Shown here: positions 18,914 to 20,527 of the stretch, one piece after another
How positions within the stretch are numbered: the stretch's first letter is position 1
Layout: each line of letters starts with the position of its first letter
Origin: a plasmid
Reading direction: 5' to 3' (one strand)
Sequence record: NZ_CP083837.1
DNA: 41,874 nucleotides
Translations under genes and position numbers: made by a program
The notes under the pieces: generated by a model
What the model was told of the DNA's origin: nothing
The model's database searches: none
The model's input: only the letters and a program-made list of their open reading frames with translations

Positions 18914-19324
18914 CTAGTCTATTGCGGCCAAGATGGCCTCTTTTTCGTCATGCTCACAAGCCCAATCCCGCAAGCTGTGATACAGCCTTGAAAACCGCTC
19001 CTGGTCAGCGCCTTCTGTGTGAAATGACAGATGGCTATAGAGGTAGAGGCAAGCGGTAATCCCGGCAGCATCGGCGCTCATTTGGCCACTAAAGTAGTTC
19101 ATGGCCTCGATGTTCAGCATTTCATCACGACGCCCAGGAGCCATATAAAAGCCGCCGTTCGACAGCTCCCACATAAGCCAATAAGCCCCGCGATACTCGC
19201 GGCAGAGCCCTTTCATTTGCTGGTAAAGCATCGACTCGAAAACCACATAGAAACGGCCTACATAGGGGTCAGTTTGGATATAGAGAATTATTGTACGGTA
19301 AGCCTGTTTTTTGAACAGACTTAC
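18914..19324 (-). pseudogene. klcA: KlcA/ArdB-family antirestriction gene, apparently 5'-truncated. ORF from GTG at 19246 gives 110 aa. Homology continues upstream without a start codon, to a stop at 19325.
   Basis: YWLMWELSNGGFYMAP...SADAAGI...AID matches the RK2 KlcA core. The upstream in-frame DPYVGRFYV aligns with KlcA PTYFGPR but lacks the N-terminal ~20 residues. Confidence 0.6.
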
Positions 19325-19520: not shown

Positions 19521-19634
19521 TAAAAGGTTAGGTGGGGGGGGTTATGCGCATCAGATGAATGTTGTAACTAAACGATGTTTTTATTAAAGGCCGGAGGTGG
19601 TTAGCCCCCAGCCTTAGTTACGTTTCCGTATTCA

Positions 19635-19730
19635 TCAATCGATGAACTGGCGGATCAGTTCCAGAATAGCAATCAGCGCGTTTGCCAGCGCCGCTACCGC
19701 TCTAAGAACGATGATTAACAGATTAATCAT
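19635..19730 (-). CDS. Candidate 31-aa hydrophobic peptide (MINLLIIVLRAVAALANALIAILELIRQFID) with a GGAGA Shine-Dalgarno. Possible type I toxin-like small protein.
   Basis: Hand-translated. Single predicted TM helix. SD 5 nt upstream of the ATG. Lies in a ~750-bp non-coding stretch. Confidence 0.25.
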   Translation of the reverse strand: MINLLIIVLRAVAALANALIAILELIRQFID

Positions 19731-19806
19731 CCGGTTCTCCAGATAAGCTGGAGGAAATCACCGTTGCTTACTCATACACTGCCTGTCACAACGGTTCTCT
19801 CGCATT

Positions 19807-19844
19807 GTTAGATGTAGAGTGACTTCCTCCTGCCAGAGCACCAA
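19807..19844 (+). repeat. Direct repeat unit 1 (GTTAGATGTAGAGTGACTTCC...GCCAGAGCACCAA), ~38 bp. Partner at 20048-20084.
   Basis: 21/21 plus 13/13 identical blocks. Copies are 241 bp apart. Confidence 0.7.
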
Positions 19845-19984
19845 ACACAGCACCACCTGTTTGTTCAGCCAGGACTTTTGAAACTATTCATACCCGCCGG
19901 AACGGGGAAGGGCAGGGAGGCCACTTACAGAGCTAACCCCGCAATTATACCGATCTGCTGGCGAAACTCATGCTGTAATTCAGT

Positions 19985-20007
19985 CAGTTGACAACTTGTG
20001 TCAACTG
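19985..20007. promoter_or_regulatory. Perfect 9-bp-arm palindrome CAGTTGACA-acttg-TGTCAACTG (contains TTGACA on both strands), followed by TGTGTCAA repeats
   Basis: Seen directly. Operator-like dyad between the two 38-bp repeats. Confidence 0.45.
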
Positions 20008-20047
20008 CCACTGGACAGCCTGTGTCAAGTGCCATAATATTATGGGT

Positions 20048-20084
20048 GTTAGATGTAGAGTGACTTCCCCGGCCAGAGCACCAA
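20048..20084 (+). repeat. Direct repeat unit 2, lying ~20 bp upstream of a bidirectional terminator
   Basis: See unit 1. Confidence 0.7.
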
Positions 20085-20100
20085 CTCCGAACCGGAAAAC

Positions 20101-20133
20101 AAAAAAGCCCGATCTCACCAGTCGGGCTTTTTT
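20101..20133. terminator. Bidirectional rho-independent terminator (A6, GCCCGA, loop, TCGGGC, T6)
   Basis: 6-bp GC stem flanked by an A-run and a T-run. About 130 bp downstream of the RHH gene on the minus strand. Confidence 0.6.
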
Positions 20134-20266
20134 GCGTCTGAAACAGCGTGCGCTACGTGAAATCTGAGTTCGAGTGAAGGGAGGTTAATCCCGATTTTTT
20201 AAACTGAAGCGTCGCCATCCCCCGTGAAAGAAAGCCCCCAACTACGCCCTGACAAAACTGATGATA

Positions 20267-20527
20267 TTAACTTTTGCCGTTGTCGGCCAGCTCGAACATA
20301 GTATTCAGGCTGGAACGGAATTGATTCACCGATGATACTAGCTCCTGACTCCGCGCTTTTTCTTGCGCTAGTGAGCGCCTGAGCTGCGTTATCTCGTCTC
20401 TGTTACGCTGAAGCTCAAGGATGGCTGTCATAAAGGCTTTACTGGCTGACGCCATTCCGGTAACCTCCTGCGCCTTTCTGATAACCTGATCTTCATCGTC
20501 ATTTGTTCTGATGGTGTAATGCCCCAT
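20267..20527 (-). CDS. Ribbon-helix-helix-like DNA-binding protein with C-terminal coiled coil, 86 aa
   Basis: N-terminal beta-strand/helix pattern HYTIRTNDDEDQVIRKAQE...ASKAFMTAILELQRN typical of the Arc/MetJ/CopG fold. Confidence 0.5.
   Translation of the reverse strand: MGHYTIRTNDDEDQVIRKAQEVTGMASASKAFMTAILELQRNRDEITQLRRSLAQEKARSQELVSSVNQFRSSLNTMFELADNGKS

Follow-up and report, generated by a model that had tools for sequence, protein, structure and literature searches.

What does an apparent gap of 750 bp do on a KPC-carrying IncX5 plasmid? The window analysed here, a stretch of 41,874 nucleotides of plasmid DNA (NZ_CP083837.1), contains such a gap at positions 19521-20266, and the initial annotation had guessed that it held a small RNA/peptide locus, possibly a type I toxin-antitoxin system or an antisense-regulated module. 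Matches to the DqlB protein profile and to the Rfam AgrB model bear out this guess, and we are highly confident that positions 19575-20134 hold a complete type I toxin-antitoxin module, dqlB/agrB, which belongs to the DinQ family and resides on a conjugative plasmid with an IncX5-type backbone. This kind of module is already known, already annotated and validated by experiment in homologues, and nothing is changed for type I systems. The practical value lies in annotation; the sRNA, its target, the promoters and the switch elements are mapped here in window coordinates.

Sequence comparison indicated that the IncX5 backbone is shared with another IncX5 plasmid from position 19265 onward, and that the junction with the KPC resistance unit falls directly after a klcA-like antirestriction ORF. 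The locus had been described as lying immediately outside the resistance unit; the border is not where it had been drawn, since the junction is found approximately 250 bp to the left of 19521. The conserved part has its left edge at about 19575, and the module bounds are approximately 19575-20134. By megablast, 3887 plasmid records contain the region; the top matches are IncX5 plasmids with 100% identity, which come from many Enterobacterales. In the identical IncX5 plasmids examined, RefSeq labels the toxin dqlB (WP_000609145.1). An sRNA feature was absent from all records examined; plasmid tables omit RNA genes.

The toxin gene is the following feature:

19635-19730, minus strand: dqlB coding sequence, 31 amino acids plus stop; NCBIfam NF041473; RefSeq WP_000609145.1 in identical plasmids

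The minus-strand peptide ORF reported in the initial annotation was found at these coordinates, together with its Shine-Dalgarno (SD) sequence, a GGAG at 19737-19740 located 6 nt 5' of the ATG. The peptide, MINLLIIVLRAVAALANALIAILELIRQFID, is predicted to form a hydrophobic single helix (GRAVY 1.79). It matched the NCBIfam model NF041473, "DinQ-like type I toxin DqlB", over its entire length (residues 1-31 of 31) with 71.7 bits against a cutoff of 35 (E = 3e-20), and did not reach the cutoff of the DinQ equivalog NF041472 (23 bits vs 30). No peptide match beyond DqlB and DinQ was detected in NCBIfam at E <= 0.1, and the resemblance to TisB, Ldr and ShoB proposed earlier has to give way to membership of the DinQ/DqlB family. 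Pfam contained no family for the peptide or for the neighbouring 86-aa ORF. Presence among related plasmids and conservation of the peptide ORF had been suggested as checks, and both came out in favour of a genuine gene. Besides its occurrence in the 3887 records, the ORF of two IncX3 loci (L006 and L015) differs from that of the window by 6-7 nt, all of the changes being synonymous, so that the peptide is identical. Variable sites in the dqlB ORF are distributed 13/4/21 over the three codon positions. As judged from these mostly synonymous substitutions, the ORF is under purifying selection.

The antitoxin gene and its target correspond to a pair of repeats:

20048-20134, plus strand: AgrB-like antitoxin sRNA of about 87 nt (Rfam RF02891), made up of repeat 2 as the antisense 5' segment, a hairpin in the interior and the terminator
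19806-19844, minus strand: repeat 1, located in the 5'UTR of dqlB and targeted by AgrB, a direct repeat of the agrB 5' part that holds switch element 2

When the whole window was scanned against Rfam, AgrB was the sole match at the gathering score. The match to RF02891 extends over 20049-20134 on the plus strand and covers model positions 1-84 of 84 (42.5 bits, gathering score 40). Together with the E value of the NCBIfam match, this places the support for the module far above chance. The AgrB score exceeds its gathering score by a narrow margin. At the gathering score, IstR, Rdl, OhsC and Sok were not detected in the window; the same library detects Sok in three other loci (L005, L008 and L012). 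Weak Rfam matches to STnc370, OrzO-P (24.6 bits against a gathering score of 60) and the Thr and Trp leaders were rejected, as they cover only the terminator hairpin. The AgrB-like RNA is predicted to fold with -28 kcal/mol (z = -3.1). Its gene lies on the strand opposite to dqlB, adjacent to it and without overlap, an arrangement that is the same in 8 other dqlB loci with an adjoining AgrB-family sRNA; two such sRNAs, agrA and agrB, are found beside E. coli dinQ.

The paired direct repeats of about 38 bp were found at 19806-19844 and 20047-20084 with a start-to-start spacing of 241, as the initial annotation had described. They share 22 perfect nt, followed by a 1-nt indel and one mismatch, and then 13 perfect nt. 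The idea of two sRNA genes did not survive; one repeat is the 5' part of the sRNA and the other is its mRNA target. Because the two genes are transcribed divergently, a direct repeat in the DNA makes both RNAs complementary. The 5' end of the AgrB-like RNA and the minus-strand RNA of 19805-19845 were predicted to form a 37-bp duplex of -70 kcal/mol, compared with -31.5 kcal/mol on average and -44.2 kcal/mol at best in shuffled controls. Across 11 loci, cognate target/sRNA pairs match at 31.2 of 36 positions, non-cognate pairs at 24.6 of 36, and the cognate pairing is the best match in 9 of the 11; the window, with 34/36, is tied for the best. The antisense "specificity" segment varies between plasmid lineages and stays matched within each of these loci. 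Repeat 1 is located 76 nt upstream of the ATG, and the agrB target position lies 67-78 nt upstream in all 11 loci.

Could repeat 1 instead be a second, agrA-like sRNA gene on the plus strand? E. coli does carry two tandem agr genes, both of which are matched by Rfam (L002). Repeat 1, in contrast, gave no AgrB model match even at E < 10, has neither a plus-strand terminator nor a -10 box, contains switch element 2 and sits at the conserved target site; in IncX3 loci, too, agrA was not found (PMC12317039). The missing model match, the missing terminator and the conserved target position led us to reject this candidate, which has almost no chance of being correct, and repeat 1 is treated below as the mRNA target.

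Promoters and terminators were predicted for both genes:

19944-19971, minus strand: dqlB promoter, with a conserved -10 TATAAT (19949 to 19944) and a weak -35 ATGAGT (19971 to 19966)
20012-20040, plus strand: agrB-like promoter TGGACA-17-TAATAT, found by promoter scan, ending 7-8 nt 5' of the Rfam match
19587-19615, minus strand: dqlB terminator hairpin with an 11-bp stem, 3' of the invariant 3'UTR box CGGAAACGTAACTAAGG
20100-20134, both strands: bidirectional intrinsic terminator A6-GCCCGA...TCGGGC-T6, with perfect 13-nt arms at 20100-20112 and 20122-20134

The sigma-70 promoters and intrinsic terminators of both genes are predictions at the consensus level. Conservation of the dqlB -10 and of the start box GTTAGCTCT was seen across 10 loci and also among 7 close relatives. 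Based on the position of the -10 and on a 5'UTR of 207 nt, a length comparable to that of dinQ, transcription of dqlB probably starts near 19937. The dqlB -35, ATGAGT, is a poor one. On the plus strand, an agrB -10 of the form TAnnAT is conserved in 10 loci. In the window this -10 lies within TAATATTA (20035-20042), a motif that the initial annotation had listed and that is itself contained in a perfect palindrome, CCATAATATTATGG (20032-20045). The reiterated motif TGTGTCAA is also present, in two copies, but the count by itself is not unusual, since 42 of 100 shuffled sequences reach it.

The dqlB terminator folds with -23.2 kcal/mol (z = -3.5). Its stem is kept by compensatory changes and the box CGGAAACGTAACTAAGG is invariant in 9 loci, E. 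coli dinQ included. The U-tract of this terminator is weak. The strong bidirectional terminator reported after repeat 2 was confirmed, with perfect arms and similar predicted folds on both strands (-23.2 and -22.5 kcal/mol, z = -5.2 and -4.2). On its far side, a minus-strand backbone operon converges towards it (TopB, Hha, H-NS, ArdR, a SprT-like protein and the 86-aa ORF, which ends at 20267). The terminator is predicted to end both the AgrB-like RNA on the plus strand and the convergent backbone operon on the minus strand, and it probably insulates dqlB from read-through of that operon.

The 5'UTR of dqlB contains the elements listed below:

19922 to 19911, minus strand: element 1, GGCCUCCCUGCC, close to where the primary transcript starts, pairs with element 2
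inside repeat 1, minus strand: element 2, GCAGGAGGAAGUCAC, pairs alternatively with element 1 or element 3
19761 to 19747, minus strand: element 3, GUGAUUUCCUCCAGC, whose 3' end CUCCAG pairs with element 4
19742 to 19737, minus strand: element 4, CUGGAG, which holds the SD GGAG
19710-19731, minus strand: start-codon hairpin GAUGAUUAA-UCUG-UUAAUCAUC, from the minimum-free-energy fold; columns 231-250 of the 13-locus consensus
19840-19869, minus strand: conserved 5'UTR stem-loop, SL2 of the dinQ/dql family; RNAalifold columns 86-116

The dql family, plasmid members included, was defined by Kristiansen et al. (PMC5066626), who described four elements in the dinQ 5'UTR. In the inert primary dinQ transcript, elements 1 and 2 are paired and the SD is shut in a hairpin made by elements 3 and 4; in the transcript processed at +44, element 2 is paired with element 3 and the SD is open. 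Binding of AgrB to the element-2 region of dinQ closes the SD again and leads to cleavage by RNase III (PMC5066626). In the window, element 1 matches the position of U16-C28 of dinQ, and the 3' end of element 3 forms with element 4 an SD-sequestering hairpin, CUCCAG-CUUAU-CUGGAG, which corresponds to the dinQ hairpin 3:4 (PMC5066626).

The fold and covariation analysis recommended in the initial annotation was carried out with RNAalifold on 13 loci (12 dqlB loci and K-12 dinQ). The consensus comprised 46 pairs, 17 of which showed compensatory double changes, including those of the SD hairpin (columns 207-223; 4-5 both-sided compensatory changes per pair) and SL2 (up to 6 per pair). RNAfold predicted that the full-length RNA adopts the 1:2 pairing with a closed SD hairpin, the SD being unpaired with a probability of 0.003, and that a 9-bp hairpin forms over the AUG. 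RNA truncated at +45 folded with the 2:3 pairing. Both alternative duplexes were more stable within a locus than between loci (-18.8 vs -14.4 kcal/mol for 2:3 and -19.8 vs -15.1 kcal/mol for 1:2), and cognate 1:2 duplexes reached -17 to -29 kcal/mol in 12 of 13 loci. Collectively, these models support the presence of a dinQ-type four-element switch in the UTR, with mutually exclusive pairings 1:2 plus 3:4 versus 2:3. Folding of the 5'-truncated RNAs predicted no open SD (probability unpaired <= 0.02). Since folding alone leaves the SD closed after truncation, the activation step rests on the dinQ experiments.

We also considered that the locus may be an inactive relic, with a toxin that is no longer expressed or no longer toxic. 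The weak -35 of dqlB would fit, and decay of such modules does occur, as one locus (L012) lost its promoter region by deletion between the repeats. In the window every element is intact, from the ORF with its SD and the four elements of the UTR to the -10 box and the terminator of each gene; the peptide has remained the same as in IncX3 plasmids despite the 6-7 synonymous differences, and the cognate complementarity ranks with the best of the 11 loci. These features make a relic very unlikely.

Our proposed mechanism builds on what this analysis establishes, namely both family assignments, the complementarity of the two RNAs, the co-varying structures, the consensus-level promoters and terminators and purifying selection on the ORF. 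Homologues supply the rest by analogy: where the transcripts end, how they are processed at the 5' end and cut by RNase III, how long each of them lives, and that the module is toxic and addictive. The minus-strand promoter would produce an mRNA of about 360 nt with the 207-nt 5'UTR, coding for DqlB, a membrane peptide of 31 aa. In the primary transcript, elements 1 and 2 would be paired, the 3:4 hairpin would bury the SD and a second hairpin would bury the AUG; the mRNA would therefore be stable yet untranslated. By analogy with dinQ, loss of the first 40 nt or so would free element 2 for pairing with element 3, opening the SD. From the plus strand, the AgrB-like sRNA of about 87 nt would be made, its 5' 38 nt being complementary to the element-2 region in repeat 1. 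Pairing of the sRNA with this target would re-close the SD hairpin and create a substrate for RNase III, so that cells retaining the plasmid would produce no toxin. A segregant that has lost the plasmid could not replenish the sRNA, and the longer-lived toxin mRNA would be processed and translated. DqlB would then kill the segregant from the inner membrane, resulting in post-segregational killing. Under this mechanism, the apparent gap would be an addiction module that helps to retain the carbapenemase plasmid in the population, and curing, by a CRISPR-based method for instance, would kill the cured cells unless AgrB is supplied.

The control of dqlB appears to differ from that of its chromosomal relative. 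The promoter of E. coli K-12 dinQ has a LexA box, TACTGTATGATTATCCAGTT, over its -10, unlike the dqlB promoter of the window. No CTG-N10-CAG was found at the latter, and the single copy of this motif, matching 11 of 20 consensus positions, lies inside a stem-loop of the 5'UTR. A published "SOS box" of a plasmid dqlB (PMC12211044) is identical to positions 19855-19874 of the window, which correspond to +64..+83 in the co-varying SL2. As the site falls within a transcribed, co-varying stem, we regard this "SOS box" as a by-product of RNA structure, and LexA/SOS control as in dinQ was discarded as an explanation for the dqlB promoter.

The same observations bear on the role of the system. A real dqlB/agrB pair may serve mainly in something other than post-segregational killing, such as membrane depolarisation or persistence induced by stress, phage exclusion, or competition between different agrB specificities. 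Chromosomal dinQ is described as a stress (SOS) gene affecting membrane potential and recombination (PMC3567139). The antisense "specificity" segment has diversified among plasmid lineages, and the extra AgrB-like genes of some plasmids resemble the dqlB targets of other plasmids, which would be sensible in plasmid-plasmid competition. Against such a role, the LexA box is absent from the promoter, the only CTG-N10-CAG being in the structured 5'UTR, and addiction and stabilisation have been shown directly for two plasmid homologues (PMC12365149, PMC12317039). A different main role is therefore unlikely in our judgement, and post-segregational killing is retained as the preferred function.

The first of these homologues is the dqlB/agrB locus of pOXA-48 (IncL), reported in 2025 as a type I toxin-antitoxin system and addiction module with a toxic peptide that is rescued by agrB (PMC12365149). 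Its agrB tolerates no transposon insertions in Tn-seq, and agrB alone rescues the killing that follows destruction of pOXA-48; the same study found dqlB in 53% of IncX plasmids (PMC12365149). Family and architecture are the same as in the window. The peptides (L011 for pOXA-48) are identical at 23 of 31 positions, and the complementarity between 5'UTR and agrB is 35 nt in pOXA-48 (published, PMC12365149) versus about 38 nt in the window. Unlike that of the window, the agrB of pOXA-48 is not detected by Rfam at E < 0.01, its promoter has no dyads (see below), and the locus is found in a different neighbourhood, repA-trbC.

The second homologue, the locus of pOXA-484 (IncX3), was also reported in 2025; its toxicity was shown, agrB neutralises it, and a test plasmid carrying the locus is stabilised (PMC12317039). 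The identity of the IncX3 peptide with DqlB of the window (WP_000609145.1) applies to L006 and L015, the allele tested in pOXA-484 being a separate comparison. Similarly to the window, the IncX3 loci have a divergent AgrB-like sRNA and a single agr gene, and are located beside a SprT-like/H-NS/TopB backbone block. They differ from it in the spacer between the promoters and in the antisense "specificity" segment (for example, GTCAGTTGTAGAGAGT in L006 instead of GTTAGATGTAGAGTGAC).

The dinQ-agrAB locus of E. coli K-12 (PMC3567139, PMC5066626) is homologous to the window in its 5'UTR, SD hairpin, start-codon hairpin, 3'UTR box and terminator. The two share the four-element switch, their AgrB RNAs belong to the same Rfam family, and DinQ and DqlB have a common C-terminal core, ALIAxLELIR. 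DinQ is made of 27 residues and DqlB of 31, and E. coli has two agr genes (L002) where the window has one AgrB match.

Other type I systems resemble the module in logic, with no sequence or model similarity. In tisB/istR-1, zorO/orzO and shoB/ohsC, a small hydrophobic toxin is encoded by an mRNA with a long structured 5'UTR that needs processing, and an sRNA from the opposite strand pairs in trans with this 5'UTR via a short repeated segment.

One part of the locus is left unexplained by the module, the tandem dyads between the divergent promoters:

19985-20007 and 20009-20031, no strand assigned: two tandem dyad-symmetric sites in 24-nt units; the agrB -35 forms the left arm of dyad 2

The initial annotation had recorded a perfect dyad with 9-bp arms and a 5-nt centre. 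It was found at 19985-20007 as CAGTTGACA-N5-TGTCAACTG (dyad 1), and is accompanied by a second copy with 8 of 9 arm positions matching (dyad 2). Its inclusion as a piece of the small-RNA locus did not hold, since the dyads are not a constituent of the conserved module and are absent from other dqlB/agrB loci. Neither the IncI1, IncL and other loci nor the agrA/agrB promoters of E. coli have them, so they do not belong to a family core; two loci, L014 and L015, carry both dyads as the window does. A search of the window and of a complete IncX5 plasmid returned no further copies, and sites of a plasmid-wide regulator were discounted with only these two present. The minus-strand TTGACA hexamers of the dyads were rejected by eye as a -35 for dqlB, being located 49 and 73 bp from the -10.

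In seven relatives borne by IncX1, IncX3, IncX5 and IncF plasmids, the dyad-2 arms ACTnGACA/TGTCnAGT are invariant except for one symmetry-related position, and 4 of the 5 bases of the centre vary among these same relatives, a small and closely related sample. The left arm of dyad 2 is constrained anyway as the agrB -35. Conserved arms around a variable centre would fit a protein-binding site, and the dyads could be putative operators for a dimeric DNA-binding protein, encoded by the host or by the plasmid; we consider this doubtful. If the dyads were operators, the bound protein could adjust how strongly the antitoxin sRNA, and perhaps also the divergent toxin gene, is transcribed, and release of the toxin would be conditional, not purely a result of plasmid loss.

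Structure prediction around the start codon of dqlB, the 31-aa type I toxin gene, identified a perfect 9-bp hairpin:

19710-19731, minus strand, GAUGAUUAA-UCUG-UUAAUCAUC, enclosing the start codon

This hairpin was kept in all 13 loci compared, E. coli K-12 dinQ among them. It is predicted to act as a second translational lock of dqlB, beside the hairpin at the Shine-Dalgarno sequence. The sequence at 19855-19874 of the window, ACCTGTTTGTTCAGCCAGGA, exactly matches a candidate LexA box that was published for a plasmid-borne dqlB (PMC12211044). It probably does not serve as an SOS operator, because it is located inside the dqlB mRNA (+64 to +83), within a stem-loop showing compensatory changes.

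Two dyad-symmetric sites of 23 bp each were found in tandem at 24-bp spacing between the dqlB and agrB promoters (window 19985-20031), the second overlapping the -35 element of agrB, the antisense sRNA gene. Their arms were conserved in IncX-type relatives and their centre was variable; no further copies were present on the plasmid.

In some other plasmids, AgrB-like genes were present in two or three copies whose 5' antisense segments differed:

L005 (NZ_CP122866.1), 1877-1964, 2123-2210 and 2496-2583, three AgrB-like genes
L004, 1931-2019 and 3116-3203, two AgrB-like genes

Only the first of the three genes in L005 matched the dqlB of the same plasmid; the remaining ones were similar to target sequences found in L008-type and L010-type loci. 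Upstream of one of these extra genes lay what is left of a dqlB promoter box. The extra genes may be orphan antitoxins that shield a plasmid's host from addiction modules carried by its competitors. At locus L012 (NZ_CP050048.1, 1619-1780), an AgrB-like gene was found 73 nt upstream of the dqlB ATG, at the exact site expected for the 5'UTR target. This arrangement appears to be the product of a deletion in which the target repeat recombined with the agrB repeat. Such an event would have taken out both the promoter of dqlB and the promoter region of agrB, and the locus would be dead.

The module is flanked by two ORFs:

18914-19246, klcA-like antirestriction ORF
20267-20527, minus strand, 86-aa ORF convergent with the AgrB terminator

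Homology with the IncX5 backbone of pABWA45_4 begins at window position 19265, which places the junction with the KPC resistance unit directly after the klcA-like ORF, about 250 bp to the left of the start of the 19521-20266 stretch. A run of eight G residues was present at 19534-19541, about 35 bp past the end of the dqlB module. The 86-aa ORF had no family match in Pfam or NCBIfam and corresponds to a hypothetical protein (WP_040080119.1) in the IncX5 plasmid annotation.
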